This document shows, in pieces, positions 1,968 through 22,811 of a stretch of 64,000 nt of DNA (position 1 is its first letter; the number at the start of each line of letters is the position of its first letter). The stretch is from Wickerhamiella versatilis (lineage: Eukaryota): positions 372,001-436,000 of the forward strand of contig JAQOWU010000007.1 in NCBI GenBank assembly GCA_030867685.1, read 5' to 3'. A model generated the notes under the pieces. That model was not told the DNA's origin. It saw nothing but the letters and a program-made list of their open reading frames with translations, and did not search any database. The position numbers and the translations under genes were made by a program.

Positions 1968-3206
1968 ATGACTGACTTCCTGGTTATCGGAGCGGGGTTG
2001 GTAGGGCTGACTAGCGCGCTCCAACTGCAAAAAGAAGGCTTTCGAGTGAAAATAGTCGATCGCAAAGGTCCTGGTCTCGGTACGTCATATGGTAATGCTG
2101 GTGTGATCGCTACGATAGAGTCAGAGCCACTAGCGAATCCACATTCACTTATGCAAGCGCCATTCCTCCTATTCGACAAGGAAGGTGCACTCAAAATGCA
2201 TCCTGGGTATATGTTGAATTTATTCCCATTCATGACTAGGTTTGTGATGTCCTGCTTGCCTTCCCGGGTGGAATCAGGAGACAAAGCACTTCATTCGCTC
2301 AATTCTAATGCACTTGGCGCATGGAAGAGATGCTTGAAGTCTATCGGTGCCGAAAAAGAACTTGTAAAATCGGGATTGATAATGGTTTGGCAGAGAGAGA
2401 ATGCGATAAGGGATATAAAGTCATTCCAAGCAAACCTTCGCGACAAAGGGTTAGAATCACAACTTCTAGAGGGTGATGAGATACAGTCTCATGAGCCACA
2501 GCTCAATTCTAGTATACGCTATGGTCTTTTGTTTCCTAATGTTTACCATGTCAGTGAACCCTATCGTGTGTCCACTTGTCTTTTCGAAGCATTAAAAAAA
2601 AACGGTGCTGAATTCATTGAAGAGGATATTAAAACTGTGAAGGTAAACCCGTCTAATGTCGAGGCAAAGTCAGAAAATATTACTTTGAGGGCTTCAAAGC
2701 TTCTGATTGCCTGTGGTGCTGAGAGTGCAAAGTTGGCCACGGAACTGGGAGTTCACGTACCACTTGAGGCAGAAGCTGGTCATCATATCATGATGCCTGA
2801 AAGAAAGAAAACTCTCAACCATATCGTTACCTCGGCAGATAGTCACATATATATGACCCCTATGATCTCAGGATTGCGAGTAACTGGCTTTTCCGAGTGG
2901 GGTGGGCTGAATTTGAAACCAAACTTGACAAGATACAATACACTGGCCCACATCGCAAGTGGGATCTTGCGCGATAGTGTTGTTCTAAACGACGCAACAA
3001 CCTGGACAGGCTTCAGGCCCACCCTCCCTGACTACTTACCTGTCATTGGTAGGCATCCTCAGTACCCAGAACAGGTTTACTTCGCATTTGGCCACCAACA
3101 TTTGGGAGTTACACAGTCTGCAATTACTGCAGAGCTAATAGCGGCGATAGCTAAGGGGCGCGCTCCAAAAGTTGACCTAGCTCCATTCCGCCCCGATAGA
3201 TTTTGA
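1968..3206 (+). CDS. Bacterial-type FAD-dependent D-amino acid dehydrogenase (DadA family, resembles D-hydroxyproline dehydrogenase LhpB)
   Basis: VIGAGLVG dinucleotide motif, GTSYGNAG, WTGFRPTLPD, AFGHQHLGVTQ, C-terminal PDRF; all typical of proteobacterial DadA/LhpB proteins. Confidence 0.85.
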   Translation: MTDFLVIGAGLVGLTSALQLQKEGFRVKIVDRKGPGLGTSYGNAGVIATIESEPLANPHSLMQAPFLLFDKEGALKMHPGYMLNLFPFMTRFVMSCLPSRVESGDKALHSLNSNALGAWKRCLKSIGAEKELVKSGLIMVWQRENAIRDIKSFQANLRDKGLESQLLEGDEIQSHEPQLNSSIRYGLLFPNVYHVSEPYRVSTCLFEALKKNGAEFIEEDIKTVKVNPSNVEAKSENITLRASKLLIACGAESAKLATELGVHVPLEAEAGHHIMMPERKKTLNHIVTSADSHIYMTPMISGLRVTGFSEWGGLNLKPNLTRYNTLAHIASGILRDSVVLNDATTWTGFRPTLPDYLPVIGRHPQYPEQVYFAFGHQHLGVTQSAITAELIAAIAKGRAPKVDLAPFRPDRF

Positions 3207-3353: not shown

Positions 3354-4043
3354 CTAACGAGGAAGGTCATCCGAGACCTCCACATGGAAATGCGGTCGTG
3401 TGAACAAGTTTCTTATCAACCCCTTATCCATGTCTCCCTGCACATACCACTTGGGTCGAGAAAAACTTACTACTGATGTTGAGGGCTCATCGCTAGCAAC
3501 TTTAGCAGCAATAGTAGTGCTACTCAAGACGCCAGGGTGCAGTCCCAATTTTTCTACCATGCCTTCAAGACTCGCCTCCACATCTGGAGAGACCTTAGCT
3601 TCTTTGGAGCACAGTATCGCGGCAGCCTTTTCAAACTTTATATCCTTCATTTGATCACATACGTCTTCTAGGTACTGTAAAGGTAGGCTGATAACCAAGA
3701 TATCAGCGTCCTCTGCCACTTTATGGATATCTGAGCTTGCATGAAGGTTGAAAGGTAAAGGAACCTCTGGAAGGTACTGAACATTCTCATGATAGGTATT
3801 TATGATATCGGTGAGTTTCATATCATCTACCATTTCTTCATGTACCCACATTTTTACATCTCGATGGAATAAGTAGGGCTTTCCCATGCAATTATGCGCT
3901 ACTATCCGGGCAATAGCAGTACCCCACTGGCCAGCACCTATTACGGCAACGCGAAATCTCTGTCTATAATTTGAAGCAATATACGCTGGCGCGGATTTAC
4001 TGCCAAGCAACTCTTCCAACCTCTTCGTCGGTGTTGCTGTCAT
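3354..4043 (-). pseudogene. C-terminally truncated NAD-dependent glycerol-3-phosphate dehydrogenase (Gpd1-like N-terminal domain only)
   Basis: FRVAVIGAGQWGTAIA, VKMWVHEE, LTDIINTYHENVQYLP, LFTRPHFHV match Gpd1. The ORF stops just before the GALKN catalytic-Lys motif and no continuation is visible downstream. Confidence 0.75.
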
Positions 4044-4407: not shown

Positions 4408-6414
4408 TCAATAGAAGTTAAGCTTGATACCTTTTTCGCGAGCAATAGCCCACCAGTAAGATGGCAAACCAGAAGCTTGCCTCCTTCTAACCTCGTTAAT
4501 GACCTCCAACTTATCTCCATATCTGAATGGACTTGTAGAACTTAGGTTTTGGAACCACAAGTTGTAGCGCCTAGTGAGATCTGTATCTGAAAAAATTGCC
4601 TCGCAGGCCCCTATAAATCCTGCAAAGCAGGGCGGACAGACTAGCGGCGCATTTCGAGTTTGCGTCAGCTCATTTATCGCTTCCAAATGACTCAAAATTC
4701 TCTTTATTCGCGGCTGAAGAATCGATCTATCAATGTTCTTGGTTACCCTGTAATGATAGACGACCAAAGCCTCGTGAAAAGCGAGCGTATGGTGGTTAAC
4801 AAGAGCTAGACAAACACCTTTCCTGCCTGCATCTGTCTCTTCTTCTACAGGTGCTAGTATCATAGGTGGGGTGTATTGATGATACCAATTTTCGAGTGCT
4901 GCTTCAAAATTGATGCACTTCTCGCTATGTTGAACCTCAATACCCTGTTGAGTCAAGATTCCTTGGCCATCACGAGTTCCACGAGATAGCATTATTGCTT
5001 CTTTAAATAGAAAGCCAAGAGAGCAAGGAATGCCATAGGTTAGCTCCCAAGAGTTTCCTTTCAATTCAGCCTCATACATATCCTCATCTTTCTCTACGAA
5101 GAACGGCTCTTCAATGACGTATTGCATGAGATATTCCTCGAATTCGGGAAGGCTTGTAAGTTGCAATGATGGATTTAAACGCGTGTTGCGAGTTTCAATA
5201 GATTTTCTAGCCATATCGCTTTTGTCTGGAAGCATTCCAGAGAAAATGTGATCAATCCAACTGTAAGTTGATTCGTCTATGTAAAACTGGTCGCATTCAT
5301 TTATGCTAAGCATCAGGGATCCGGAGAGCCTTGATAGAATCATAGACATCGCTGAAGTCCTATGTAGAGTGGCAGCCTTAGCACTGACTTTTGGTCTCTG
5401 TTGCAGACGGCTACCTATCAGTAGTCCAATAACATCGAAAAATTTCCACGGTATAGAATGATCATATTCAGCAAAATAATCGGTTCTTTGCAGACATTGT
5501 AGAGCTACCAATAGGTCTTTGTATTTGCCAGCATGGCATCCCTCAAAGCTTCCTTTAATACTACATTTTGCAGCAGTATGTAGTTTTTGACCTAGATCGT
5601 TGTAATATCGAATGCCTTCATTATTTGGCGAGCAACGATCACGGATAAAATATGCTGTGCTGGCTGTAATGCTGTAAAGGATGCAAAGCCGTCCACATGA
5701 ACTGTGGCCAGTAGATAGCACATCCCCAATTGCACTTACGGCTCGCGGAGTCTGGGAAGTGCGCCAAGAGTTCTGAGGATGTACCAGAAAAGACATATAG
5801 GGCATCATGTATTCGTGATATACAGAAAGTAAATATTGAGTTAACGGTGATAATTGGGGTAGCTGTCTTGGCTTTTCAACCGGAAAATAAGGGAGGTAGT
5901 CTGAGAAGTCCGCTTGAAATAGTATATTATCGTGCTTTTGCTCACAGGATTCAAAATAATTGGGCGGTAAAGCCCGATAAAAAAAGTAGGGAAGTGGGAT
6001 AAAATCACCTTTAGACGGATTATGAAGCCACTTAGGGTAGCTTGGATGCGTTATATTAGAAGGCATGGTTTTTAAAGACTTCGCTTTGGGAGAATTATCT
6101 GTGATGGATGCACTGAAAGTGGCGAATGGACCCTCAATCATGGTTTTACGTTCAGGTCTCGCCAAATCGATTCTGACCAGTGCCTCATCCAGCTCTTCAT
6201 GCGTAGCATAGAGCATCGAATTTGGAAACTTCACAAACCCAATAGGACGCCTAGTCTCTGCCACATCCTCATCCCCCCAGGTTAATCGTATTCCGTATCC
6301 TTCACAATCTATACTCGCACGAGCACAGCGATTACAAGTGGGAACTGCCTGATCACATTTTACTTTTCTTTTACGACATGACCAGCATCCCTCGAATGAC
6401 TTATATCTTGCCAT
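4408..6414 (-). CDS. Zn2Cys6 transcription factor, Arg81-like N-terminus
   Basis: SFEGCWSCRKRKVKCDQAVPTCNRCARASIDCEGYGIRLTW; first ATG at 6414. Confidence 0.9.
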   Translation of the reverse strand: MARYKSFEGCWSCRKRKVKCDQAVPTCNRCARASIDCEGYGIRLTWGDEDVAETRRPIGFVKFPNSMLYATHEELDEALVRIDLARPERKTMIEGPFATFSASITDNSPKAKSLKTMPSNITHPSYPKWLHNPSKGDFIPLPYFFYRALPPNYFESCEQKHDNILFQADFSDYLPYFPVEKPRQLPQLSPLTQYLLSVYHEYMMPYMSFLVHPQNSWRTSQTPRAVSAIGDVLSTGHSSCGRLCILYSITASTAYFIRDRCSPNNEGIRYYNDLGQKLHTAAKCSIKGSFEGCHAGKYKDLLVALQCLQRTDYFAEYDHSIPWKFFDVIGLLIGSRLQQRPKVSAKAATLHRTSAMSMILSRLSGSLMLSINECDQFYIDESTYSWIDHIFSGMLPDKSDMARKSIETRNTRLNPSLQLTSLPEFEEYLMQYVIEEPFFVEKDEDMYEAELKGNSWELTYGIPCSLGFLFKEAIMLSRGTRDGQGILTQQGIEVQHSEKCINFEAALENWYHQYTPPMILAPVEEETDAGRKGVCLALVNHHTLAFHEALVVYHYRVTKNIDRSILQPRIKRILSHLEAINELTQTRNAPLVCPPCFAGFIGACEAIFSDTDLTRRYNLWFQNLSSTSPFRYGDKLEVINEVRRRQASGLPSYWWAIAREKGIKLNFY

Positions 6415-6731
6415 ACTTATCAACCCTTTGTGAAGTGGGCATACAAAATGATGTGATTACTACTAGATTATCAGAAAGATGCAACTTATCGTCGAAATAA
6501 TTTCCAAAATGGAATCTTTGGAATCGAAAAAGGATTATAATTGCAAATAGTGCAAGGCAATAAATATAAAAGATGAAATAATGATAATGGTGACACATAG
6601 CAATGTTATTATCCATCCCCGAAGTAAAATAAACACTCGGAAAATTGGACGCTAAGCCAATCCTTACGTGTTGCATTTTAATGTTAGTTTAATCCTACGT
6701 GACAAAGATTATCTGAGATTCTTTATTCTTG

Positions 6732-6746
6732 GGAAAGTCTGGCCGA
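6732..6746 (+). promoter_or_regulatory. Shared 15-bp upstream motif GGAAAGTCTGGCCGA, copy 1
   Basis: Identical to 9389-9403; ends ~105 bp before the OPT ATG; contains a CCG triplet. Confidence 0.7.
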
Positions 6747-6850
6747 AGTTATCTTACTATTAGTCACAATAAGATAGCACTCTTAAGTGGGAGTTACTTA
6801 TAGACCTCGAAGCACAGCATTCAGAATTAATCTTTAATTCATACATCAGT

Positions 6851-9172
6851 ATGTTGGGAGCTGAAAAGAACAAAGTTTCGACGGCAACCGTCAAGGACCT
6901 CAACGAAGAGGAGGAATCTGTTCATAAAGGCTATGTAGGTACTGATGATGTCGGGTTGGAGGAGTCAGAAATGGTTGAATATGGCCCTGATGAGATACTT
7001 GACGAAACAGCTGAGAATGCGCCCTTGCCTGAAGTGAGATCAGTTGTCAGCCCCTTTGATGACGATAGTCTTCCGGTAAACACATTTCGCGCATGGTTGC
7101 TTGGTATTTTATTTACAATTATCGGCTCTGGTATTAATCAATTCTTTTCTATGCGTTACCCAGGCATAACTATAAGTTCCATGGTGGCACAATTGGTATC
7201 TTTTCCTTGTGGGGTGTTTCTTGCTAAGGTTCTCCCTGTACGTGAGTTTAGTCTTGGACGGCTTGGAAAATACAAATTAAATCCCGATCGAAAATTCAAC
7301 AGTAAAGAGCATACATTGATCACGATAATGGCTAACATATCATTCACTTCGGCTTGGGCCACAGACATCATTCAGGCCCAGTTTATCTATGGTAAAATGC
7401 CTGCTGTAGGGTTTCAGTTCCTATTAGTGCTAACATGCCAGCTTTTCGGACTGGGAATTGCCGGACTAGCACAGGATATTTTAGTGCATGATTCCCGTAA
7501 CTATTGGCCCACTACTTTGGCAAATGTAGCTCTATTTGCCTCTTTACACTCGAAGGCAAATCCTGTGGCTAATGGTTGGATGATAAGTCGTCTGAAATTT
7601 TTCCTTGTAGCATTCGGTGCTGCTTTTATCTATTACTTTTTCCCGGGATTCATTTTCACTGCGCTGTCGAATTTTACCTGGATTTGTTGGATCGTACCTA
7701 AAAATATTGTGGTCAATCAGTTATTCGGACAAATTCAAGGCTTAGGTTTCAGTCCAATTACATTTGACTGGTCACAAATCACGTATGGTTACAGTTCTTC
7801 ACCAATGCTTATTCCCCCATCAGCTCTTGTAAATGGAATTTTGTCTTGGCTCCTTTTTTTTGCTATACTACCAGTAATACTTTATTATACCAACAAGATG
7901 TACTTCTCGTATCTTCCAATGTCTTCTTCTACAGTTTTTGATAATAAAGGCAACGAATATAACGGTTCGAGGGTCTTGGATGGGGGGAATCTGTCGCTGA
8001 ATGAAGAGGCATATCGCAACTACTCACCACCTTTTCTGGCGGCCACCTATGCAATTTCATACGCATGTTCTTATGCTGTTCTATCTTCATCAATAACATA
8101 CCTTGTTCTTTATCATGGTAAAAGTATATTAGAAACCTTCAAAGGACAGCAAAAGAAAGATGTTCATGTGCGGCAGATGGAAAAGTACAAAGCTGTACCA
8201 AAATGGTGGTATATTCTACTTACCTTGATTATCTATGCTATTACCATTGGGATCAATGAAAGGTATGAGACTGATTGGCCGGTATGGGGAATAACCATAG
8301 CCCTGCTTATGGTAGCTGTTTTCATCATCCCCGTTGGGATAGTTTATGCCAGGACAAATATAAATACTAATTGCATGACTGTATTGGGGCAAGTCATAGC
8401 AGGATATGCTCTCAACCCACCTAAACCAATTGTATCCTTGCTTTGGAAGTTTTATGCTTACACTGGGATTTCACAAGCAATGTATTTCAGCCAGGATATA
8501 AAACTTGGATATTATATGAAGGTTCCCAAAAGAACAATTTTTGCGGCCCAATTCACTGCGTGCATAATAGGTGCTATTGTGCAGGTTGGTGTTTTGCTGG
8601 GAATGCTCCAAGGACTTGATGGAATATGTACGCCAGGCCAAAAAGATAATTTTACGTGTCCACAAGGGACAACTAATTATGCAGCATCGGTTATTTGGGG
8701 GCTTGTTGGTCCTCAGCGGCTTATATCTGCGGGAAAGCTTTATTCTGGTTTTCTTCATCTATTTTGGATCGGAGCTGTGGTTGTCTTGCTTACCTGGCTA
8801 CTTCAGAGAAAATTTCCTAATAATCGTGTTCTGAAAAATATTAACTGGGTTGTGTTCTTCGGAGCACTGGGGAATTATCCTCCAGCCACAGGTATTAACT
8901 ATACATCAGCGTTTGTGGTTGGGATCGCTTTCAATTATTTCATTAAAAGAAGATATGGAAATTGGTGGCTTAAGTATAATTTTGTCCTATCAAGTGCTCT
9001 TGATGTTGGAACAGCCCTTTCAGGTATAGTGATTTTTCTATGTCTAGGTCTCACAGGTGCTTCGCTTAAGTGGTGGGGGAACGAAGTTTATAATAATACA
9101 GCTGATGGGAAGCTCACTCCGTACAAGGAATTACCATCTAAGGGGTATTTTGGACCAAGCTCTTGGTCTTAA
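6851..9172 (+). CDS. OPT-family oligopeptide transporter
   Basis: PLPEVRSVV, NTFRAW, FNSKEHTLITIMA, QDIKLGYYMKVP, KYNFVLSSALDVG, WWGN. Confidence 0.95.
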   Translation: MLGAEKNKVSTATVKDLNEEEESVHKGYVGTDDVGLEESEMVEYGPDEILDETAENAPLPEVRSVVSPFDDDSLPVNTFRAWLLGILFTIIGSGINQFFSMRYPGITISSMVAQLVSFPCGVFLAKVLPVREFSLGRLGKYKLNPDRKFNSKEHTLITIMANISFTSAWATDIIQAQFIYGKMPAVGFQFLLVLTCQLFGLGIAGLAQDILVHDSRNYWPTTLANVALFASLHSKANPVANGWMISRLKFFLVAFGAAFIYYFFPGFIFTALSNFTWICWIVPKNIVVNQLFGQIQGLGFSPITFDWSQITYGYSSSPMLIPPSALVNGILSWLLFFAILPVILYYTNKMYFSYLPMSSSTVFDNKGNEYNGSRVLDGGNLSLNEEAYRNYSPPFLAATYAISYACSYAVLSSSITYLVLYHGKSILETFKGQQKKDVHVRQMEKYKAVPKWWYILLTLIIYAITIGINERYETDWPVWGITIALLMVAVFIIPVGIVYARTNINTNCMTVLGQVIAGYALNPPKPIVSLLWKFYAYTGISQAMYFSQDIKLGYYMKVPKRTIFAAQFTACIIGAIVQVGVLLGMLQGLDGICTPGQKDNFTCPQGTTNYAASVIWGLVGPQRLISAGKLYSGFLHLFWIGAVVVLLTWLLQRKFPNNRVLKNINWVVFFGALGNYPPATGINYTSAFVVGIAFNYFIKRRYGNWWLKYNFVLSSALDVGTALSGIVIFLCLGLTGASLKWWGNEVYNNTADGKLTPYKELPSKGYFGPSSWS

Positions 9173-9388
9173 GAAGCCCACGGTATTTTATTGAAAGAAT
9201 GAAATTTTTTTTACTCGATAGCCAGGACTAGAACTGAACGAATATAGATTTTAGAGATAACAAATTTCACATCAATATTCTTCCCTTTAGCGTTTCTTTA
9301 GAAGTATTATAGTACGTGGTGTTTCCTCCAGGAAACCTAACCTATAGCTTAATTCACTCCACAAACCCTTATATTGTTATTAATCAAA

Positions 9389-9403
9389 GGAAAGTCTGGC
9401 CGA
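9389..9403 (+). promoter_or_regulatory. Shared 15-bp upstream motif GGAAAGTCTGGCCGA, copy 2
   Basis: Identical to 6732-6746; ends ~100 bp before the oxidase ATG; GATAAG nearby at ~9426. Confidence 0.7.
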
Positions 9404-9503
9404 GGTGAAATCTCCCGTGCGCCGAGATAAGATTATAAATACTAGGGGTACAAGACTTTTATAAGTACGGTGCACCGCCCACGGTCATAGAGAACCACAA
9501 GGT

Positions 9504-10778
9504 ATGCTGTCGAAAGAATCAAATATCATAATTGTAGGAGGAGGAACTTTTGGTCTTTCTACGGCATTATGGCTGTGCAGGAATCATTATCGAAATGTCA
9601 CTGTTATTGACTGCTTTGATGTACCATCTGACCTGAGCGCAGCTTTTGACCTTAACAAAGTCATTCAATCTTCCTACGGGCCTAATGATAGGTTCACCAC
9701 GATGCTCGCGCTAGAAGCACTAGAACTTTGGCAAAATGATCCTGTTTTCTATCCACATTTTCATGATACTGGGATTGTTTATGCTACTTCAGCAGGAAAG
9801 GAAAGCGAAGAATACCACCAACTCAAGTTGGTGCATGATGAGATGGTGAACTCAGGTCGAGAGGCTAGCATACCTCTAGATAGTGTAACTGACTTCAAGA
9901 GGCTTGTGCCTCAACTCACTGGAGATATATCTTCGTGGAGAGGATTCTATCAAGCAAAAGACTGCGGATGGGCTCAAAGTCTTGGTGCACTAGCCTCTGC
10001 TGCAGAAGAGATAAAAAGGTTAGGCGGATCACTTGTTACAGCAAAAGTAGAAAGTCTTATGTTTGACGAGAATTCTACCAGAGTAGTAGGAGTATCTGCA
10101 TCTGATGGCAGAGTTTTCTACGGTGAAAAAATCGTGATTTCTGCTGGTGCATCATCTGTAAAACTCCTTGATTTCAAAAATCAGCTTCTTGCAAAGTGCT
10201 GGACGTTAGGAAAGATTAAACTTTCTCAGGAAGAGGCAAAGGAGTTTAAACACATACCTGTTGTAACAAACCAGGAAATGGGATTCTTTTTCGAGCCTGA
10301 CTATAAGAATGAAATCAAAATATGCAATGAATTTCCCGGTTATACAAATTATATAAGGGAAAGCAAAGAGCCCGATGACTCTGTGCCAGTGAAAAGGAAC
10401 TCGATCCCTAAGGAAGCCGAAGCGGGTATAAGATCTTTGCTGCATGCAACAATGCCGCGATTCGAAGGTAGGGATCTTACTGAGTCCAGAATATGTTGGT
10501 GTACTGATACACCAGATCGTAATTTCCTGATCTGTGAGCATCCAGATTACAGCGGATCACTAGTTCTTGCCACTGGAGACTCAGGACATGGATTTAAACA
10601 CATGCCAAATATCGGTAGATATATCGCAAGGCTTATTTGTTATGGGCCCGCGTCACTTGGTGAGGAGAAGAATCAAAAGTGGAGATGGCGGCCTGAAACC
10701 AGTGGTGACCGCATTCAAAACAGATTTGGAGGCTTAGGATCTGTTAAAGACCTTAACGATATCAAGGAATGGATTTAA
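9504..10778 (+). CDS. Fructosyl-amino acid oxidase (amadoriase) / saccharopine-pipecolate oxidase family flavoprotein
   Basis: IVGGGTFGLSTAL, SAAFDLNKV, GFFFEPD, IKICNEFPGYT, RICWCTDTPD (FAD-linking Cys), ATGDSGHGFK, WRWRPET. Confidence 0.88.
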   Translation: MLSKESNIIIVGGGTFGLSTALWLCRNHYRNVTVIDCFDVPSDLSAAFDLNKVIQSSYGPNDRFTTMLALEALELWQNDPVFYPHFHDTGIVYATSAGKESEEYHQLKLVHDEMVNSGREASIPLDSVTDFKRLVPQLTGDISSWRGFYQAKDCGWAQSLGALASAAEEIKRLGGSLVTAKVESLMFDENSTRVVGVSASDGRVFYGEKIVISAGASSVKLLDFKNQLLAKCWTLGKIKLSQEEAKEFKHIPVVTNQEMGFFFEPDYKNEIKICNEFPGYTNYIRESKEPDDSVPVKRNSIPKEAEAGIRSLLHATMPRFEGRDLTESRICWCTDTPDRNFLICEHPDYSGSLVLATGDSGHGFKHMPNIGRYIARLICYGPASLGEEKNQKWRWRPETSGDRIQNRFGGLGSVKDLNDIKEWI

Positions 10779-10880: not shown

Positions 10881-12206
10881 CTAAGATTTATGCTTTTCTT
10901 TTACAGCTTCTGTGGCTTTGGTGGCTGCAGCTATGATAGTATCTATGTCTGCATCAGTCATTGCGGTCGACATAGCCAGAAAACCACTGCTTGCCGCAAA
11001 AACACCGTTATCTAAAAGCCCCAGGTGAAATATTTTAAGCATATCCTTTTCTTGAGGCGTTTGATAAGCTGTGCGATAGTCGGAAATCGCCTTCTTTCCA
11101 AAATGGACATTCAAAAGAGAACCGACGCCGGTAGCGTGACCGGGTACGTCAAAATCTTTGAATATCTGGTTGAGACTATCACGAACCTTCTGGCCCATTT
11201 CGTTAAGACGCAAAAAAGCTTCCCTATCCAGCAGTTTCATACTTTTGATCCCCGCCGTCATAGTGACAGGATTAGCGGAAAATGTGCCGGCATGGGGAAC
11301 CGCAGGATTACCCTTCGATGGATCAAATACACTCATTATATCCTTACTTCCTCCAATGGCACCTACAGGAAAGCCACCACCAATTATTTTCCCCAGTGTG
11401 GTCAAATCTGGTTTCGCATCCCATAATCCTTGAGCGCCGTTAAAACCAAGTCTGAAGTTAATAACCTCGTCAAATATGAGAAGCGACCCAATTTCGTGTG
11501 CCTTCTTGGTTAGCGACTCGATAAAATCCTTTCTAGCAGGGATTAGACTGACATGACTAGGTAAGGGGTCCACGATTACTGCGGCTATCTGACCAGCGTT
11601 CTGTTCCAATATCTGATTCGATGTCTCAATATCATTGAAAGGCAAAACTACGACATCATTAAGGACCCCACCTGGAGTTGCTTTGCTATAAGCTACTGAC
11701 TGTGGGTATTTATCACCCCAGTTTTCAGGAGAAGAATCGAGACTTACCTCTGCGAAATCATATGTACCATGATAGGATCCCTCAACTTTTGCGATTTTAG
11801 GATGACCAGTATAAGCCCTTGCTGCTTTTATCGCCATCATTACAGCCTCACTACCTGAGTTCGTGAACCTGATTTGCTCAGCTGTGGGCAGGCGTTCCAC
11901 TAGAATCTCTGCTAAATCTATCTCAGACTCCGTCGGCAAGCCGAAGCATGTACCCAATTGAATTTGCTGCTCAACAGCATTTAAAATATCTGGATTAGCA
12001 TGACCATGAATCAAAGATGTGAAGTTGTTATTGCAATCGACCCTCACCTTGCCATCGGCATCCCAAACCTTGGAACCTTTTCCACGTACCGCATAGAGCG
12101 GGAAGGGCCTCATGTAAATACTAGACCGCGTATTTCCTCCAGGAAGTACGCGGCAAGCCCTTTCATAAAGTTTTTCCGAACCTATAGCGTCTGTTGGATA
12201 GCTCAT
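10881..12206 (-). CDS. Class III PLP aminotransferase, HemL/GSA-aminomutase-like, bacterial type
   Basis: LPGGNTR, RFTNSGSEA, GSYHG, LIFDEVINFR, LGKIIGGGFPVGA (PLP Lys), HAGTFSANP. Confidence 0.88.
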   Translation of the reverse strand: MSYPTDAIGSEKLYERACRVLPGGNTRSSIYMRPFPLYAVRGKGSKVWDADGKVRVDCNNNFTSLIHGHANPDILNAVEQQIQLGTCFGLPTESEIDLAEILVERLPTAEQIRFTNSGSEAVMMAIKAARAYTGHPKIAKVEGSYHGTYDFAEVSLDSSPENWGDKYPQSVAYSKATPGGVLNDVVVLPFNDIETSNQILEQNAGQIAAVIVDPLPSHVSLIPARKDFIESLTKKAHEIGSLLIFDEVINFRLGFNGAQGLWDAKPDLTTLGKIIGGGFPVGAIGGSKDIMSVFDPSKGNPAVPHAGTFSANPVTMTAGIKSMKLLDREAFLRLNEMGQKVRDSLNQIFKDFDVPGHATGVGSLLNVHFGKKAISDYRTAYQTPQEKDMLKIFHLGLLDNGVFAASSGFLAMSTAMTDADIDTIIAAATKATEAVKEKHKS

Positions 12207-12439
12207 ACAGGCACGATTTGGATGACCTCTACCCTGTTAAGTCGATGTGGTTTATGTAATCAAATGTTGCTGATAACTTATTGTCGAAAGTGTCTTAATC
12301 TGTTCACTTCTCTCTTTTATTTATGTGCTTATTTTAATGGCGATTTGCATGTTGTTGGAACTATATCAAACCTATTCTGATATGCAGATTGATGCCGTGT
12401 GTTATTAATCACAGTCTTATCCTATTCTATAGATTGTGA

Positions 12440-14170
12440 ATGTTCGTATCACGCTTGTTGAGAAATAAATGGTATTCTGACCAAAGTAATGGCTCTGGTA
12501 TGCCATTGAAACTACTCCTGTCAACAGATGGAGTATACACGCCGCCCAAAGGCAATGGCCAGATGAAATTTAGTTTTCCTAATCCTGAACCCTCTGTGAG
12601 CTTCGCTGGCTATCTATTTGCTTTCGAAGTGATCACATTTGAAAATTCATATGGTTTAGATCCAAAAAATACCGTCATAAAGAAGACAGAGAGAGGAATC
12701 GAGCTGTGTACCAATCGCTTGACATGGGCTGGAGGGCAACAATACGAAAGCGGTACCGTTCGTGCTCATATCTTTCTATCGGTGGAGAACTATATAGAGT
12801 GGCAGGTAACGGCATGTATGGCTAATGGTAGTCATATCAAAGCAATAAAGAGTATCGTGCGAGGGCTACCTCGAGGTAAATTATCTGTCTCTGCTGCAGA
12901 ATTTGAGGAACCTGGTGATAATGAAAAAATTTTTGAATATCCAGCTTTGCAAGGAGGCATGGCAACCCCTTTCGTGGCCATTGAGGAAGAAAGTGGTGAT
13001 CTATACGGCATTTCCTCCTTACAAAGTGAGGTTCGTCCGGCAAGGTTTGTTTTCTTCCCAGGTCCTTCGGGGTACAGAACTGAGCTTATTTATGAGCAGG
13101 CTGGATGGAATCCTTCTTCGGTTGTTAGGGCTCATCCTTGGCGTATTGTCGGACCTAAAGACTCTTTTAAAGATATATGTCGTATCCATTTCGAAGAAGT
13201 AGCACACAATTGGTCCTGGTGTCCATTTAAAACCAGATTAGATGTACCCATGTGGATGAAAAGTATATCGCTTGTGGTTTCGCTCCATGGGGAGCATTGG
13301 ACTGGGTTCGTACACAACAGCTTTCGTCAACAAACAGAGATTCTTCGATGGATTGCTACCCAGATAAACCCAGCTAACGTCATGGTTTTTTTAACTGGAT
13401 GGGATGGAAGGTACTATTGGTCTTATCCTAGTTTTGAAATTGGACGTCATCCTGGTGGGGCTCGTGATTTTAAAGAGCTAATTGATGTGGGCCACAGTTT
13501 GGGCTTTCATTTCGCGCTCATGTTCACGAGCAATGTAGCTAATCCTACATCTCCAGACTATGCTATGATATCTCATGCTAGGTTGAGGACTATATATAAG
13601 GACCCATTCCCCGGTAACTATGTTGACTGGGATGGTGACCGCAAAGGTGAGGGCTCGATGGTTTTTATGAACCTTGCTGTCGAGAGCTGGAGAAATTGGT
13701 TATACTGTAAAATCGCTGAAATGATCGAGAATTACAGGGTAGATGCGTATTTTCTCGATATTTGCGGCTTATGGGAGAACAATTTGGATGGTGATATGTT
13801 TCTCGGTCTCAAGAAGTTGGTGGAGTCACTTGCTGCTCGGTTTCCTGGTGTGCCACCAATTGCAGAAATGCAATATGATGCTCAAATGGGTATCATACCG
13901 ATGAATCAGGTTCCACGGTTCTCTATGTTCGACCAAGCCAATTATGAAACTGTCGCTTCTTTCTGTCACTTAAGTTGGCCAGCACCTGGTGATGGATCCA
14001 CTGGAATTCATGAGTATGGATTTGGTAAATATATACCTGTAGATCCCCATCAGTCCCCGATTCCTACTATCTCCTTTACATGTGACACATTCAAGCGACA
14101 TTCTGACGCAGTGTCCCGCGATATTGCTACGGCTAAAGAGCGATTCCTTTTGAGAGGTAATAAGACATAG
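12440..14170 (+). CDS. Uncharacterised protein, probable glycoside-hydrolase-like TIM barrel (start may be 12500 or 12563)
   Basis: 576-aa ORF; GWDGRYY, GGARDFKELIDVGHSLG, FMNLAVESWRNWL, YRVDAYFLD resemble GH27/31/36-type barrels; no fungal family recognised. Confidence 0.55.
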   Translation: MFVSRLLRNKWYSDQSNGSGMPLKLLLSTDGVYTPPKGNGQMKFSFPNPEPSVSFAGYLFAFEVITFENSYGLDPKNTVIKKTERGIELCTNRLTWAGGQQYESGTVRAHIFLSVENYIEWQVTACMANGSHIKAIKSIVRGLPRGKLSVSAAEFEEPGDNEKIFEYPALQGGMATPFVAIEEESGDLYGISSLQSEVRPARFVFFPGPSGYRTELIYEQAGWNPSSVVRAHPWRIVGPKDSFKDICRIHFEEVAHNWSWCPFKTRLDVPMWMKSISLVVSLHGEHWTGFVHNSFRQQTEILRWIATQINPANVMVFLTGWDGRYYWSYPSFEIGRHPGGARDFKELIDVGHSLGFHFALMFTSNVANPTSPDYAMISHARLRTIYKDPFPGNYVDWDGDRKGEGSMVFMNLAVESWRNWLYCKIAEMIENYRVDAYFLDICGLWENNLDGDMFLGLKKLVESLAARFPGVPPIAEMQYDAQMGIIPMNQVPRFSMFDQANYETVASFCHLSWPAPGDGSTGIHEYGFGKYIPVDPHQSPIPTISFTCDTFKRHSDAVSRDIATAKERFLLRGNKT

Positions 14171-14625: not shown

Positions 14626-16347
14626 ATGGGAGCTGAGCCTGACTCAGGAGTAAAAGGTTGGATTGGAAACAGATCCAAAACAATCGCGAAAAGCATCTGG
14701 TTCCATTACTTTACATATGATGGGCTTATAGGGGATGTTGATTATGCTTATCTTTTTCGACCAACAATCCCCTTCACAAAGTGGAATAACTCAACACATG
14801 TTTTCTTTGGGTTGGATGAGAAACTACCTACGTTATTAGCTGCTATACTGGGCCTCCAGCACTGCATGGCTATGGCACCTGGATTAGCATCAACTGCATT
14901 ATTATTGCAATCCTACTTAAAGCTATCTTCACAGCAAACAGAATACATTATATCGGCAACTTTCATTACAGCCGGAATATTCAGTGCAATAATGATTGCT
15001 CGTATCCCAATACCATTCACTAACAGATATATCGGGACAGGGATGATATCTGTCTTAGGCATGTCGCCTACAATAGCTACCATTCTCAACCAGTCCCTTA
15101 CAGAGATGTACAACAATGGATTCTGTCCGGTTGATTCGGATGGCACTAAACTTCCGTGCCCAGACGCATATGGTGCAGCACTAGGTACATGTGCCGTATG
15201 TGGTCTTTTTGTGGTTCTTCTTTCATTTTTACCACCAAGAATCATTCACAAGATATTTCCTCATATAGTCACTGGTCCTGTTGTCGTACTGATAGGACTT
15301 TCACTCGCGATAAGTGGCGTAAAGGATTTTGGAGGGGGTACTGCGTGCTATCCTCACGATCAGTGTAACACGGGAACTTCCCAAAGCCATCCCTGGGGAT
15401 CAGGGCAATTTATAGGCTTAGGCTTCAGTGTGGTTATCACAATTGTACTTTTTGATAAGTTCGGGGGCCCAATAATGAAGTCATGTGCTACTATTCTCGG
15501 GTTGATTGTGGGATGCATTATTGCTGCAGCAACCAAGTACTTTTCTCACGAATCTATCGATGAAGCCCCGAATGGGCAGTTTTTGTGGACCACGACATTC
15601 AGACTAACTGTGTATGGTCCCCTTGTGCTACCATGCATTGCTCTTGTATTAATATTGGCTGCAGAATCTGTGGGTGATATTGCAGCCACTGCGCAACTTA
15701 GTAAACTACCCGTTGGTGATGATGGTGAAGAGCACCAGAGACGTGTGAGGGATGGCCTTCTAGCAGCAGGGCTTGCTACGATCTTCGGCGGCCTTTTTAC
15801 AACTGCTGCAAACAGCTCTTATAGTCAAAACAATGGAATAATCGCAATTACTCAAACGGCATCAAGATCTGCAGGGTTTTATTGTGCGTGGTGGCTATTT
15901 CTGATGGGTATAGTTGGAAAGTTTAGCGCGGCTATGGTTGCAATTCCGAAAGCAGTATTCGGTGGATTGGAGTGTTTCCTTTTCACGAGTATCTCAGTCG
16001 CTGGGCTTGGGATAATTGGAAATATTCATCCATTCACTCGCCGTGATCGGATGGTCTTAACTATTGAGCTTTTGTTTGGATTTGCTTCTTTGTTGATACC
16101 CACATGGTTTGATGATGTCTTTTTACCATCCGCGAGAGATGGATCTAATCCCGGTCTGTCGAGTTTTGTCAATTCGATAGTAACAGTCGTTGAAACCCCT
16201 TATGCTATAAGTGCAGTATCAGGTGTTGCCGCTAATTTCTTATTGACTCAACATGAAACTGTCGTTGACGAAGAAGAAATTGAGGGGAAGACAGTCTCGG
16301 ACGATGAAGTAGAGGTTATGAATCCATCCAAAAGCGCACCAGTATAA
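14626..16347 (+). CDS. NAT/NCS2 uric acid-xanthine permease (UapA/UapC-like)
   Basis: DYAYLFRPTIPF, LGLQHCMAM, NAT signature QNNGIIAITQ, FTRRDR; first ATG at 14626 (the track start is TTG). Confidence 0.92.
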   Translation: MGAEPDSGVKGWIGNRSKTIAKSIWFHYFTYDGLIGDVDYAYLFRPTIPFTKWNNSTHVFFGLDEKLPTLLAAILGLQHCMAMAPGLASTALLLQSYLKLSSQQTEYIISATFITAGIFSAIMIARIPIPFTNRYIGTGMISVLGMSPTIATILNQSLTEMYNNGFCPVDSDGTKLPCPDAYGAALGTCAVCGLFVVLLSFLPPRIIHKIFPHIVTGPVVVLIGLSLAISGVKDFGGGTACYPHDQCNTGTSQSHPWGSGQFIGLGFSVVITIVLFDKFGGPIMKSCATILGLIVGCIIAAATKYFSHESIDEAPNGQFLWTTTFRLTVYGPLVLPCIALVLILAAESVGDIAATAQLSKLPVGDDGEEHQRRVRDGLLAAGLATIFGGLFTTAANSSYSQNNGIIAITQTASRSAGFYCAWWLFLMGIVGKFSAAMVAIPKAVFGGLECFLFTSISVAGLGIIGNIHPFTRRDRMVLTIELLFGFASLLIPTWFDDVFLPSARDGSNPGLSSFVNSIVTVVETPYAISAVSGVAANFLLTQHETVVDEEEIEGKTVSDDEVEVMNPSKSAPV

Positions 16348-16515: not shown

Positions 16516-17745
16516 TTAAGCTGGAATTCCGTGAATTTCAGGAGGGGGTATGTTATCAGGAATATAGTCGAATCGAGATCCTTCATGATTTTGATTTTGC
16601 AATTTGGTATTCTTTATGGATATCCACGCAAAGATAGGTAGTAGGCATGCTAGTGCTGTTAGCATCCAAAACGACTTCACGAGTCCCGCGGCGTTCGCTA
16701 CGAATCCTATGACAGCAGGCCCAACAAATCCACCGAAGCATCCTATAGATGCGACCGCTGATATAGCAAGGCTTGAAGGCATGGAAGACTGCAAGCCTGC
16801 AAGTCGTGTCACAGCCGGAGCTATATTAGCAACACCTAGACCCACTAGCGCGAATCCAAAATAAGCTGCTGAGGCCACCGAGGATAAGACTACTAGAAAG
16901 AATCCGGAAATAGCCAGGGTACTACTTAAAATTAGAGAAACAGTGTCTCCATATCTTGCGATAAAGTAGTCCCCACTGAGCCTTCCTAAAGTCATTGCTA
17001 CAGAAAAGGCGATGAATCCATAGCCAGCATTACTTGGGGCAGCTAATCCACGATCAGTTATGAATAACGCACTCCAGTCAAGCACAGATCCTTCTAAAAT
17101 AAACGAAGTAAGGTTGAAAAGAGCCAGGAGACCAACCACACCATGTGGAAAGACAAATACTGGAGATGATTCTCCCGGCATACGATGGCCAGGAAGAAGT
17201 CGCGGATACGCCAATGCCACCATAACAAGAACCAAAAGAGTCGCTGCTAGGGTTGCGGATATAGGAATGAATCCCAAAGATAGTAATACTGTCAAGAATG
17301 CGGACCCAGCAAATGTGCCGACACTGAAGTGTCCATGAAATCCAGACATGAGGGGGACACCCACAATTTTTTCAATTTCCACGCCATGAACATTTTCTGC
17401 AACACCAAGAATACCGAAGAAGACCCCGAAAAGGATCAAAAAAGGGGCGATTGTCACTGAAGTTGGCATGAAGGATAAAGGTGGTAGAATGCAGCCAGCA
17501 CCAAGCATTCCCATGATAATGAATATCTTGCAACCATAACGATGGCAAAGGGGACCGACAATAACCGTACTCAACAATGCACCACCGCTAATGAGGAGAA
17601 GCAGTATTCCCATCATAGCAGCGTCAACAGACAAGCGTGCTTTCATATAAGGAATTAGTGGTGCCCAGCAAGACACAATAAATCCGTGTGAGAAGTAAGA
17701 CAGTCTTACAGCAATTTTTGCATTCGTGGCCGCACGCAGCTCCAT
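16516..17745 (-). CDS. Bacterial-type MFS transporter (YbjJ-like)
   Basis: WAPLIP, LMSGFHGHFSVG, EGSVLDWSALF, AMTLGRLSGD, GPAVIGFVA; compact ~410 aa. Confidence 0.8.
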   Translation of the reverse strand: MELRAATNAKIAVRLSYFSHGFIVSCWAPLIPYMKARLSVDAAMMGILLLLISGGALLSTVIVGPLCHRYGCKIFIIMGMLGAGCILPPLSFMPTSVTIAPFLILFGVFFGILGVAENVHGVEIEKIVGVPLMSGFHGHFSVGTFAGSAFLTVLLSLGFIPISATLAATLLVLVMVALAYPRLLPGHRMPGESSPVFVFPHGVVGLLALFNLTSFILEGSVLDWSALFITDRGLAAPSNAGYGFIAFSVAMTLGRLSGDYFIARYGDTVSLILSSTLAISGFFLVVLSSVASAAYFGFALVGLGVANIAPAVTRLAGLQSSMPSSLAISAVASIGCFGGFVGPAVIGFVANAAGLVKSFWMLTALACLLPIFAWISIKNTKLQNQNHEGSRFDYIPDNIPPPEIHGIPA

Positions 17746-17937: not shown

Positions 17938-19896
17938 ATGTCAGCTATCATGCGGCGCTCGGTATCAGATGCCCGATATCCATTACGTAAGGTCACCTGC
18001 ACGGCGATTGCGGCGGGGATGTCGATCCGTGTACAAAAGCGTAAGTACACGAGAGTACATGTTGCCTGTGATAATTGCAGACAACGCAAGACCCGATGTG
18101 ACTCTGTACGACCTTCCTGTGGTAACTGCATGAAAGAAGGAGAGAATTGTGTTTACGCTGCATCCCCTCCCCGACCGAATGATTCAAATTTGGTCTTCAT
18201 GAATGAGCGCTTCGACAGAATCGAGAATATTCTACAGAAAATTATAGATACAAGGGCACAGGACAATGAGTCAATCACGGAAGAGCTTCGCAACATACTC
18301 GAATCAAGCAGAAAAAAAGAAGCCCAAAAACCAAACGATAAGATATCTGTATCTCGGAAAGACAAGGCAATCATTTCAAACTTCAATGAAAGGCTGTCCC
18401 ACGTGAAGATGCATACTAGTGGGAACCAGGAAAGCTCTACCGTATACATATCGGGAGTTTTTCTTTCGATTCTAAGTTCAACAGACATAGAGGTGCTTTC
18501 GCGACTACTCGACGATCCAAAACTGGGACAAAGCCTTGAGGAGAGATCTTATGAGGTGTGGCGTTCATCACAATCACTCCTGACAGTATTATTTGACAAC
18601 TCTACACCTATATCAGAAGATCATATATATTATGAGAGGTGTCTAGAGATATTTCTTCAAACAACCAGTCCTTATATTCGATGTCTTATTGGGACAGAGG
18701 ATTTGGACCCAAGGCGAAGCTTTTCCTCCGATCATTTAAGGAAAGGGATTACTGCGGCAGTAGTCATTATAGGGAGTGTAGGCATGCGACTTGATCCAAA
18801 CCATGGACAGCTTCCCTTGCAAAAAATAAACCTTTACGAAAAATCTGGATACTATCAGGCGATACGAGTTTTAAATCTTATCAGATTCTCGAAACCAGGA
18901 TTTCTGGAGGTAAGACTTAGCATGCTTCTCATTTGGCTCCTATATACATTCAGCTCCTTCCCATCAACATTGCAACTTTTTGATCCTATTATAGGTATGG
19001 CAAAAGCAATTGGTATTGATCATTGCGATAATTCTTCCGAGCGGAATGCCCAAGAAAGTGTTGTCTGGTTCTTGATAACCAACTTTCAATACCTACTAGC
19101 AATAAGTATGTCAATAAGAGCTATCGAAGATCAACCAGAACCAAATGATGACATGATGCATGATTTCTTTTCAAATTCTGAAATGACTGCACTGCAATAC
19201 TCAGGAGGTATCCACAAAATATATGATGAAGCATATGACTGTTTATTCCATGCTATGAGGCACAATAATTCGGCAGAATACATCTATAGGGACATAAAAA
19301 GCTTGGATGAAAAGCTTGTATCCTGGCGTAACCAGATTCCTGGAGCAATTTGGAACATCGAGGTGCCACCCGACTCAGGACTGTCAAGTTTTCTTCGCAC
19401 ATTTCCCTCAGGTAATTTAAAATACAAATATTATCATACTGTGATTGCAGTACATTCGATTGCAGCCTTCAGCTCAGAGCAATTTGCTTCATATCGGGGG
19501 CATTCTTTGGCTAAAGTTTCGAATGCAGCACGGGCACTATTTAATGCCTCTATCACATCGCAGCTCGCTAAAGCCGACTGTACGCTGTTACATAACTGTG
19601 GAATCACTTCAGCAATTATATGCCTCTTGTACAAACAACTCTATTATCCGTATGCCAAATCAAACTATGAAGACCTATGCCTTGTGAAGGAAAATATAAC
19701 ACTATTTTCCCTAAATGGACTTGTTCCTAATCATCGAAACCCGGTGTCCACGATTTGGGAGACTTTAGCCGATCTAATGTCGCGCCATTATCGTATTCAT
19801 CACCTAAACGTGGAAAATTACACTGATAATAAGGGGTATTCTGATTTGCCAATTGGTAAGGAATTTGCAGAAAGTGACCAATGTTCAATTATTTAA
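17938..19896 (+). CDS. Zn2Cys6 transcription factor
   Basis: ACDNCRQRKTRCDSVRPSCGNCMKEGENCVY; true start may be a downstream Met. Confidence 0.9.
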   Translation: MSAIMRRSVSDARYPLRKVTCTAIAAGMSIRVQKRKYTRVHVACDNCRQRKTRCDSVRPSCGNCMKEGENCVYAASPPRPNDSNLVFMNERFDRIENILQKIIDTRAQDNESITEELRNILESSRKKEAQKPNDKISVSRKDKAIISNFNERLSHVKMHTSGNQESSTVYISGVFLSILSSTDIEVLSRLLDDPKLGQSLEERSYEVWRSSQSLLTVLFDNSTPISEDHIYYERCLEIFLQTTSPYIRCLIGTEDLDPRRSFSSDHLRKGITAAVVIIGSVGMRLDPNHGQLPLQKINLYEKSGYYQAIRVLNLIRFSKPGFLEVRLSMLLIWLLYTFSSFPSTLQLFDPIIGMAKAIGIDHCDNSSERNAQESVVWFLITNFQYLLAISMSIRAIEDQPEPNDDMMHDFFSNSEMTALQYSGGIHKIYDEAYDCLFHAMRHNNSAEYIYRDIKSLDEKLVSWRNQIPGAIWNIEVPPDSGLSSFLRTFPSGNLKYKYYHTVIAVHSIAAFSSEQFASYRGHSLAKVSNAARALFNASITSQLAKADCTLLHNCGITSAIICLLYKQLYYPYAKSNYEDLCLVKENITLFSLNGLVPNHRNPVSTIWETLADLMSRHYRIHHLNVENYTDNKGYSDLPIGKEFAESDQCSII

Positions 19897-19994
19897 CATT
19901 AATAGAATAGAACTCTAAGATAGTTTAGAATAACTGTGAAAAAACTCTAGTATTTGATTTCTGAGTCTTAGGGAGCGGGCTTTCTTGCATTGTT

Positions 19995-20019
19995 CAACCA
20001 GTCTCAGGTAGTGAGGTGG
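19995..20019 (-). repeat. Dispersed ~25-bp intergenic element, copy A (CCACCTCACTACCTGAGACTGGTTG)
   Basis: 21 bp identical to 43206-43226; near-identical to 63435-63458. Confidence 0.85.
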
Positions 20020-20268
20020 CTTGAGATTCGCTGAAAAGTGGTTTGGGAGGAGGCCCTGGAGTTGAAAGTAAGAGAAGTCAAGCTAATCTGGTACATCTCA
20101 TGCTGCAGAAGGTCACCCCATTTGCGATAGAAGCCTATACAAACAAAAGGTTCGCAATTATAGCCGATCTATCTATAAATGTATTTACTAAATATGTGAG
20201 TCTATTTTGCTATGAAAGCTCACTTAGTATCAACTTTTGTTTGCTTAAATACGTTTTCGCAACTGCGA

Positions 20269-21060
20269 TTAGTCCGCATGGTGCTTGGTTGTGACTCTTT
20301 GAGCAGTAGGCATATATATTGGCGGGAAATCAAAGTAGCAGTTCTCATAGTTAGCCAGACCTGCGAACATATTGTAGAATCCTAGGATTCCAACTACAAT
20401 TCCAGTCCAGCCTCCTGCGAGAGCAACATTGTCATTTCCTGTCAATTTCGAGACTGCTAATAACAGAAGAGTAACGTCCAGCGTGAACACTAGTAAGAAG
20501 AAGGGTACGGTCGACCTGATTGTAGTTATCGTCATAAAAAAAGTGAATATAAACCAACACCACAGGAACATAGCCGTTGCTTGATTAAACTCTTCTGCTG
20601 TATAGGCATCAGCCACACCGAAAGGCCCAGTCAAAAGTATGGAATAGGAAATCCAAAACATACCGTAGGAACCTAAAGCAACAGCACCCCAAGTATTCTC
20701 AACTGCAAGTTCCCACATCGCGGCAAGAAATTGGACAAATCCTCCGAAGCTGTATGCAACGGAAGTGATGATGATAGGCTCGGAGACGCCACGAATTCGC
20801 ACGTTGAGCATCGACAAGAAAAGTGTAGTCACGCTAAAACTCGCCAAGCCCATGGGGGTCGGATTACCAAGTTTCCTTTTTGAAGGAACGTAGAGTCCAG
20901 GTCTGAAGTCACCACCAAATGCAGTCGACAAATCTGACCGAAGATACTTTTGACGGCCGATATGGACATATTCTTGGTTTTCTCCAGAAGTTCTGATGCG
21001 CTGCAACGGCTCGTCGACAGAATGGGCGTCTTTGACGCTATCTCCGGAATGCCCAAACAT
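20269..21060 (-). CDS. ADY2: Gpr1/Fun34/YaaH acetate/carboxylate transporter (Ady2/Ato-like)
   Basis: LGNPTPMGLASF (NPAPLGL signature), ENTWGAVALGSYGMFW, AFGG. Confidence 0.9.
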   Translation of the reverse strand: MFGHSGDSVKDAHSVDEPLQRIRTSGENQEYVHIGRQKYLRSDLSTAFGGDFRPGLYVPSKRKLGNPTPMGLASFSVTTLFLSMLNVRIRGVSEPIIITSVAYSFGGFVQFLAAMWELAVENTWGAVALGSYGMFWISYSILLTGPFGVADAYTAEEFNQATAMFLWCWFIFTFFMTITTIRSTVPFFLLVFTLDVTLLLLAVSKLTGNDNVALAGGWTGIVVGILGFYNMFAGLANYENCYFDFPPIYMPTAQRVTTKHHAD

Positions 21061-21262
21061 AAAGGTGGGGTACTTTTTTTGGAGGGGTTGCTTACCTACT
21101 CCTCTCTGAAACGTTTATTACTAATATACATTTATTACTAATACTCCTATTAGGCTACGGCTACAGCACTATGGATTGGCATTCGGTAACATCGCTTCTC
21201 AATAAACAATTCTATCATCGAAAAGGCTTCAGTTTATGTGCTACTTAAGCTATTCCTGACAG

Positions 21263-22612: not shown

Positions 22613-22811
22613 ATTAATTATTGTAAACGTGGGAACTGGTTTTCAACATCCTTCATGCGGGGAAACATGGTCTAGGGTTACTATCACCGATCGACGGTAA
22701 TTAGCCTCCTTGAAAGAAGGTATTAACACTTGTATGTTTCCCTATGAATAAAAAACACTCATTTGGATTTGAATTGTTAACAAATATAGACTTCTAGATG
22801 CATAGCTACAT

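Follow-up and report, generated by a model that had tools for sequence, protein, structure and literature searches.

In bacteria, glycated amino acids serve as food through gene systems in which an importer, a deglycating enzyme and a regulator are encoded together, as outlined for frl of Escherichia coli and Bacillus subtilis and for fra of Salmonella in the relevant portions of the published accounts (PMC12632257, PMC4072780, PMC8262997). A locus of similar composition is present in a stretch of 64,000 nucleotides from the yeast Wickerhamiella versatilis (contig JAQOWU010000007.1, positions 372,001 to 436,000 of the forward strand), referred to here as the window and numbered from its first letter. 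The locus consists of genes for a Zn2Cys6 transcription factor, an OPT-family transporter and an amadoriase-family oxidase, with an identical 15-bp element, GGAAAGTCTGGCCGA, upstream of the transporter and the oxidase. The components differ from those of the bacterial systems, none of which is eukaryotic. Bacterial importers of Amadori compounds are ABC or other permeases, unlike the OPT protein of the window; frl and fra work by kinase or deglycase chemistry, in contrast with the oxidation expected here; and the bacterial regulators are of the GntR or LacI type, in contrast with the Zn2Cys6 factor. An amadoriase-like oxidase is used in Arthrobacter and Agrobacterium for the catabolism of santhopine and fructosyl amino acids.

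The fungal enzymes most similar to the oxidase of the window include Amadoriase I and II of Aspergillus fumigatus, the fructosyl peptide oxidases of Eupenicillium, Coniochaeta, Phaeosphaeria and Aspergillus nidulans, and the enzyme of Pichia sp. N1-1. All belong to the same family and have the same cysteine together with the same glutamate, glycine and arginine. The Pichia protein is a yeast amadoriase-type enzyme whose source strain was reportedly obtained by enrichment on fructosyl-valine. Diagnostic assays for HbA1c and glycated albumin rely on amadoriases, and the known fungal members have been studied as isolated reagents for such assays, unlike the gene described here, which is linked to a transporter. 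Their role in the fungus and the route by which substrate enters the cell are not established.

In layout, the locus recalls the prn cluster of A. nidulans and the DAL cluster of Saccharomyces cerevisiae, in which a regulator lies beside or divergent from a transporter and the first catabolic enzyme. Clusters of this type combine an upstream element common to their members with nitrogen control by GATA factors. The locus of the window departs from them in combining an OPT-family transporter with an amadoriase and in the age of the pair, which by far exceeds that of the regulator; clusters of this type would also gain a new substrate class. A full-text literature search, with most subscription journals outside its coverage, returned no description of a fungal amadoriase linked to an OPT transporter or regulator, a result that is provisional for this reason. 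The available passages of a Brettanomyces genome paper report an expansion of this oxidase family and are silent on OPT linkage. Provisionally, the union of an amadoriase with an OPT importer appears new, as does its age.

The locus is a real module of uptake and oxidation, and probably an inducible one. From its genes, shared motif, adjacency and residues, we infer the following scheme for the substrate, the binder of the 15-mer and the logic of induction. The OPT protein would import an N-substituted amino acid or short peptide, and a cytosolic oxidase would cleave the C-N bond of the imported compound to release a free amino compound as a nitrogen source. Amadori compounds, either fructosyl amino acids or short glycated peptides, would be the likeliest substrates, and the reaction would then yield glucosone, H2O2 and the amino acid or peptide in free form; a different substrate would yield another carbonyl product. 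The 15-bp element, situated about 100 bp upstream of both start codons, would give the transporter and the oxidase common control. Both genes would be induced by the substrate, probably via the neighbouring Zn2Cys6 factor, and GATA factors would hold both down on preferred nitrogen (nitrogen catabolite repression). Taken as a whole, a conserved unit of uptake and oxidation, with Amadori compounds as its most likely substrates and common control through the 15-mer and GATA sites, is the reading towards which we lean slightly.

The conserved pair provides a candidate for the importer and suggests that glycated substrates of peptide size may be natural, and the locus supplies a small promoter element with a candidate regulator. 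If the scheme is true, fungal amadoriases would gain a long-sought physiological role and glycated peptides would form a new class of OPT substrates. A more general statement is offered tentatively: ascomycetes may carry an ancient salvage unit for Amadori-modified amino acids and peptides, composed of a specialised OPT-subfamily importer and an amadoriase and equipped in this yeast with its own Zn2Cys6 regulator and 15-bp operator. The yeast turns up in food-fermentation metagenomes. Sugar-rich and protein-rich ferments would be expected to hold Maillard and Amadori products, and the module could matter for nitrogen supply there.

A conserved transporter-oxidase pair

Gene identities had been proposed in a sequence-only reading of the window, and profile searches and comparisons with solved structures agree with them. 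The factor gene (4408-6414, minus strand) encodes a protein of 668 residues with two Pfam domains, Zn_clus at residues 9-45 (E-value 8.7e-11) and Fungal_trans_2 (3.9e-24). It is divergent from the gene for the OPT-family transporter (6851-9172, plus strand, 773 residues), which matches PF03169 over its full length (profile positions 2-623 of 623, 573 bits, E-value 1.1e-171). The oxidase gene (9504-10778, plus strand, 424 residues) lies in tandem after the OPT gene. Its product is an amadoriase-family, fructosyl-amine-oxidase-like enzyme that matches PF01266 over residues 8-377 with 113.8 bits, which indicates a DAO-type fold binding flavin adenine dinucleotide, and the N-terminal IIVGGGTFG aligns to the GxGxxG segment of Amadoriase II. 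A genetic code with CTG read as serine was considered and rejected. The open reading frames (ORFs) of the standard code are right, because the CTG codons of the oxidase fall on leucine or isoleucine columns in five of five cases.

Outside the window, the transporter and the oxidase are encoded side by side in distant relatives. Consecutive accessions or locus tags, from which adjacency is inferred in the standard way, were found for the two genes in 7/7 named taxa checked: Candida jaroonii (CAH6719913/14), Yamadazyma tenuis (EGV65396/97), Wickerhamomyces ciferrii (CCH44334/33), Brettanomyces nanus (FOA43_004090/89), Ambrosiozyma monospora (GME70568/69), Saitoella (S. coloradoensis YB2330_000834/35 and S. 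complicata G7K_6328/27) and Pseudogymnoascus (four strains, for example V502_09094/95). All three ascomycete subphyla (Saccharomycotina, Taphrinomycotina and Pezizomycotina) are represented among them. The OPT orthologues of the yeasts, Saitoella and Pseudogymnoascus are 57-84% identical. The best OPT matches and the oxidase matches derive from shared records. Among the 22 best OPT matches, defined by at least 57% identity and including that of the window, ten have a longest contig equal in length to that of an oxidase match, and four of these contigs are small, with 6,775, 9,355, 17,953 and 76,047 bp.

More distant examples come from 80 metagenome loci fetched with the oxidase family, none of them above 46% protein identity and 43 of them with at least 3 kb on one side. 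An OPT gene divergently adjoins the oxidase in five (L055, L059, L060, L063 and L080), and a sixth locus (L052) holds only a C-terminal fragment of an OPT gene. The linked oxidases are spread over several clades of a tree of 120 family members, namely the clade of the window, a Pichiaceae-like clade and the Saitoella branch, and the linkage is therefore broad and not a one-off, the linkage status being known for a minority of the tips. Searches of the 80 loci by tblastn for other genes surrounding the pair in the window (an aminotransferase, a second DAO-fold oxidase, a 576-residue ORF and an MFS permease) found none of them. The proposal that the transporter and the oxidase form one functional unit gains from this adjacency in all seven named taxa and five metagenome loci, and the two are very probably coupled in function. 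Their distribution suggests an ancient two-gene unit that predates the regulator by far.

Substrate of the oxidase

The closest solved relatives of the oxidase are all fructosyl-amine or fructosyl-peptide oxidases, with E-values from 3e-96 to 1e-72, and include Amadoriase II (3djd, 3e-96) and Amadoriase I (4wct, 8e-93). Monomeric sarcosine oxidase is matched at 3.5e-19. Expressed in bits, the amadoriase match amounts to 326 compared with 72 for bacterial sarcosine oxidase, in a comparison that had fungal saccharopine and pipecolate oxidases outside its range. In the family tree, the oxidase of the window belongs to a yeast clade separate from the solved proteins.

By hand count, Cys335, Glu280, Gly364, Lys368 and Arg411 of Amadoriase II correspond to Cys331, Glu276, Gly361, Lys365 and Arg407 of the window. 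Cys331 sits in an RICWC motif, and this cysteine is invariant in 120/120 homologues; its counterpart Cys335 carries the covalent flavin. The glutamate, glycine and arginine are those that contact the fructosyl moiety, as E282, G376 and R419 in AnFPOX-15 and E280, G364 and R411 in AfFAOX-II, and residues around the amino-acid side vary, according to the part of PMC6353924 that deals with the contacts. Among the OPT-linked oxidases, the cysteine, glutamate, glycine and arginine are kept in all 12 and the lysine in 11. Membership of the amadoriase family, which had been claimed from the letters of the window, accords with the fold, with Cys331 and with the fructosyl-contact residues, all of which are present.

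One OPT-linked oxidase homologue, that of L055 (10483-11241), has an alanine at the position equivalent to Glu280 when aligned to fructosyl peptide oxidase (CNATQGY compared with CNEFPGY). The substrate contacts may therefore differ among the linked oxidases.

Judged from its relatives and residues, the oxidase may well act on an Amadori compound, a proposition that we hold at close to an even call. Several observations count against it. Across the 120 homologues, the contact residues hardly vary (119 have the Glu and 113 the Arg), and for this reason they are diagnostic of the family but not necessarily of the substrate. By hand count, the position of Arg112 in Amadoriase II is occupied by a different residue. 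In addition, saccharopine and pipecolate, and not fructosyl amino acids, are the reported substrates of family members in Schizosaccharomyces pombe.

The same module could act on a different compound, a non-glycated secondary amine imported by the OPT protein, and candidates are saccharopine, pipecolate, sarcosine, other N-alkyl amino acids and N-carboxyalkyl compounds resembling opines or nicotianamine. We consider this somewhat unlikely. Absence of Arg112, which belongs to the carboxylate side of Amadoriase II, is in keeping with such a substrate, as are the automatic names of homologues ('L-pipecolate oxidase', 'sarcosine oxidase/L-pipecolate oxidase' and 'L-saccharopine oxidase') and the saccharopine and pipecolate oxidases that the S. 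pombe work is said to have placed in the family. Plant relatives of the OPT protein carry ligands of the nicotianamine type. A flavoenzyme that oxidises saccharopine is also described in the pertinent part of PMC9854754. The solved relatives point the other way, since the fructosyl-amine and fructosyl-peptide oxidases are matched at E-values far below that of sarcosine oxidase, and so does retention of the fructosyl-contact Glu, Gly and Arg. The C-terminus of the oxidase, KEWI, is without a peroxisomal SKL-type signal, unlike that of a homologue from Exophiala, which bears the label saccharopine oxidase and has VSKL as its last residues; the missing signal speaks weakly for location in the cytosol and action on imported compounds. 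It is, moreover, not obvious that an OPT-type carrier would be needed for saccharopine, pipecolate or sarcosine in free form. Amadori compounds remain the substrates that we would place first.

A shared promoter element and its candidate regulator

The 15-mer GGAAAGTCTGGCCGA occurs in exactly two copies in the 64 kb, at 6732-6746 and 9389-9403, both on the plus strand. No further copy was found in the window at up to two or up to three mismatches, and hence none in its other promoters. At up to two mismatches, the two matches compare with 0.08 expected, and two or more matches were obtained in 0/100 shuffles. Alignment of the copies extends the identity to GGAAAGTCTGGCCGA[A/G]GT, with 17 of 18 bases in common. 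The first copy ends 104 bp before the ATG of the OPT gene (6851) and lies 318 bp from that of the factor gene; the second ends 100 bp before the ATG of the oxidase gene (9504). The element is positioned upstream of a TATA box at a distance plausible for an activator, and it holds one CCG. The earlier description of a same-orientation repeat some 100-105 bp upstream of both start codons, accompanied by a CCG triplet, was thus accurate, the triplet being located inside the 15-mer.

Repetition of a 15-mer alone is unremarkable, because the window contains 13 direct exact pairs of this length, about five of which are independent and not of low complexity. The placement of this pair is more specific. 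Among 528 pairs of 300-bp upstream regions, those of the OPT and oxidase genes are the only ones with at least 14 shared bases, and the runners-up are three pairs with 13. When both promoters were shuffled 100,000 times, any shared 15-mer appeared in 24 shuffles and one within 4 bp of the same offset in none. A co-positioned 15-mer is expected by chance about 0.003 times per window if every promoter pair is counted and about 0.0002 times if only adjacent pairs are. Over the approximately 250,000 windows scanned, some co-positioned promoter 15-mers will arise by chance, a point that weighs against a regulatory interpretation, and separate evidence coupling the two genes matters for this reason.

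Coincidence without function is accordingly one account of the repeat, and the handful of independent 15-mer pairs in the window, the 24 shuffles with a shared 15-mer and the many windows covered by the scan all speak for it. It is nevertheless quite improbable in our estimate, given that no other of the 528 promoter pairs reaches 14 bases, that offsets 4 bp apart were matched in none of the shuffles, that the two genes are adjacent and their unit is conserved across Ascomycota, and that the element sits upstream of the TATA box where an activator could act. The 15-mer is likely to be functional.

In the OPT-oxidase spacers of distant fungi, the best matches to GGAAAGTCTGGCCGA have 5-6 mismatches, which is the level of chance. 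These spacers contain a recurrent element of their own. In intron-bearing fungi, AGGT[CG]AA[CT][ACG]C[CG], often followed by GATA[AG], recurs in the spacers that separate divergently transcribed OPT and oxidase genes: it has 22 hits in 719 kb, and 4.4 kb of such spacers account for 12 of them (L055, L058, L060, L063 and L080, with L058 and L059 being the same sequence). The spacers occupy 9283-9880 in L055, 9224-10020 in L059, 729-1700 in L060, 639-1239 in L063 and 2723-3253 in L080. The short contig L061 has a 13th hit, at about 168, on the upstream side of its oxidase gene. L059 and L060 are close relatives, as are L061 and L063, which leaves approximately four independent loci with the element. 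The pattern has no hits in the 64-kb window. Eight of 12 bases agree between the yeast core AAGTCTGGCCGA and AGGTCAACCCGA, a likeness to the element of the other fungi that is suggestive only. Because the spacers of other fungi hold their own recurrent element, co-regulation of the two genes extends beyond this yeast.

Sites for GATA factors are concentrated in one of the two promoters. The 436-bp region between the factor and OPT genes (6415-6850) contains seven GATAA, or 16.1 per kb, which is the highest density among 33 intergenic regions with a mean of 4.15 per kb. The 331-bp spacer between the OPT and oxidase genes holds two, an ordinary density. GATA-like sites had been noted near both copies of the 15-mer; enrichment stands for the region upstream of OPT and fails for the OPT-oxidase spacer. 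An opposite-strand GATAA starts 3 bp downstream of the first copy, and in the oxidase promoter the second copy is followed by GATAAG at 9426-9431, by TATAAATA at 9434-9441 and then by the ATG.

A 12-mer, TGTTATTAATCA, lies 2 bp upstream of the second copy of the 15-mer (9375-9386, plus strand). It has two further exact copies, at 1944-1955 and 12400-12411, and a one-mismatch copy at 7129-7140; at up to one mismatch these four matches compare with 0.71 expected, and four or more were seen in 0/100 shuffles. All three exact copies are upstream of plus-strand genes. The copy at 1944 is 12 bp before the ATG of the second DAO-fold oxidase, and that at 12400 is 28 bp before the 576-residue ORF, in a spacer shared with the aminotransferase. 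The 12-mer could mark a wider amine-catabolism regulon. An intron reading of TGTTATTAATCA, with a branch-point-like TTAATCA and a following AG, was dropped after ORF starts were found to align with family N-termini and no joints were seen in RNA.

The candidate for binding the 15-mer is the adjacent Zn2Cys6 factor. Only five homologues of it were detected, at 98% identity (another strain), 68%, 52% and 52%, together with one weak match, and none of the five carries a name. A protein atlas places the factor among generic Zn_clus/Fungal_trans_2 clusters. The resemblance to Arg81 that had been proposed for it extends to these two domains, which Arg81 also carries. The factor thus seems to evolve fast and to be lineage-specific. 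In the sister species, the factor (68%), the OPT protein (84%) and the oxidase (75%) are all encoded on one or more contigs of the same size, 76,047 bp, suggesting that the regulator is kept near the pair there.

Transcript data come from four RNA runs that carry the species label of this yeast. The runs derive from no more than two samples, and their reads are 95-99% similar to the window. The depth per strand is approximately 6-29 for the factor and 0-3.4 for OPT, and for the oxidase it is approximately 0-2.5 in three runs and 2.5-9.5 in the fourth. This pattern agrees with a constitutive regulator beside a pair that awaits induction, and it does not amount to proof of regulation.

The proposed regulation faces several difficulties. 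Many Zn2Cys6 factors use paired CGG half-sites, and the 15-mer has a single CCG. A tblastn search of the 80 metagenome loci with the factor yielded no relative, indicating that it is not a conserved part of the unit. In L055, one of two long OPT-linked loci, a gene with Zn_clus and Fungal_trans_2 domains lies just downstream of the oxidase; BLASTP detected no similarity between its product and the factor of the window despite the same architecture, and this gene is at best weak support for a regulator beside the pair. The low RNA of OPT and the oxidase would fit equally well with genes that are unimportant under the conditions sampled.

Some of these observations would also follow if the 15-mer were a real cis-element bound by a more general factor, for example one for peptide or amino-acid sensing, with the neighbouring Zn2Cys6 gene unrelated to the pair. 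The single CCG in place of paired half-sites, the restriction of the factor to one lineage in contrast with the ancient pair, and the expression of the factor at a time when the pair is silent all agree with this explanation, which we nonetheless find rather doubtful. Against it, the other promoters of the window hold no degenerate copies at up to three mismatches, and the sister species has the factor on a contig of the same size as that of the pair. Divergence of a regulator and a transporter is a layout typical of pathway-specific fungal clusters, and an activator of the Zn2Cys6 type that is expressed yet inactive without its inducer is the norm. Binding of the 15-mer by the adjacent factor is our working assumption for the module, and a cautious one that falls a little short of an even call.

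Genes around the pair

The surroundings are rich in genes suggestive of nutrient scavenging, comprising an MFS permease (11-1627), a xanthine/uracil permease (14626-16347) and a further MFS gene (16516-17745), followed further on by a CN-hydrolase gene and a PNGase-A-like gene. The second DAO-fold oxidase, which is glycine/sarcosine-oxidase-like, is encoded at 1968-3206. Between it and the factor gene lies an ORF of 229 residues (3354-4043, minus strand) that matches residues 31-235 of the 391-residue yeast Gpd1 chain 4fgw, with no room for the C-terminal half. Its RNA depth is high, approximately 200-440 per strand, with many alignment ends and starts at 3321 and 4030-4037. The signal may reflect cross-mapping from a full-length paralogue or a truncated expressed gene.

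On the other side of the pair, a class-III aminotransferase gene (10881-12206, minus strand) is convergent with the oxidase gene. Its product strongly resembles the solved chain 6k8h (E-value 4e-137) and groups with beta-transaminases and enzymes resembling glutamate-1-semialdehyde aminomutase. RNA depth is approximately 10-16 in three runs and 3-6 in the fourth.

The ORF of 576 residues (12440-14170, plus strand) matches no entry in Pfam or the PDB and has an RNA depth of zero in the four runs. It is 57% identical to a protein of Sphingomonas, 53% to one of Pseudoduganella and about 50% to proteins of Hymenobacter. The bacterial relatives sit among genes for TonB-dependent receptors, SusD and DUF5695 proteins, and the neighbours of the ORF in the protein atlas are bacterial DUF6259 and glycoside-hydrolase-like clusters. 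The ORF is a candidate for horizontal transfer from bacteria.

Further downstream, a methylcitrate-cycle cluster extends over 17938-26243. A citrate-synthase-like gene (21263-22612), a PrpD/MmgE gene (22812-24308) and an isocitrate-lyase-family gene (24606-26243) lie on one strand, beside genes for a Gpr1/Fun34/YaaH carrier (20269-21060) and a Zn2Cys6 protein (17938-19896).

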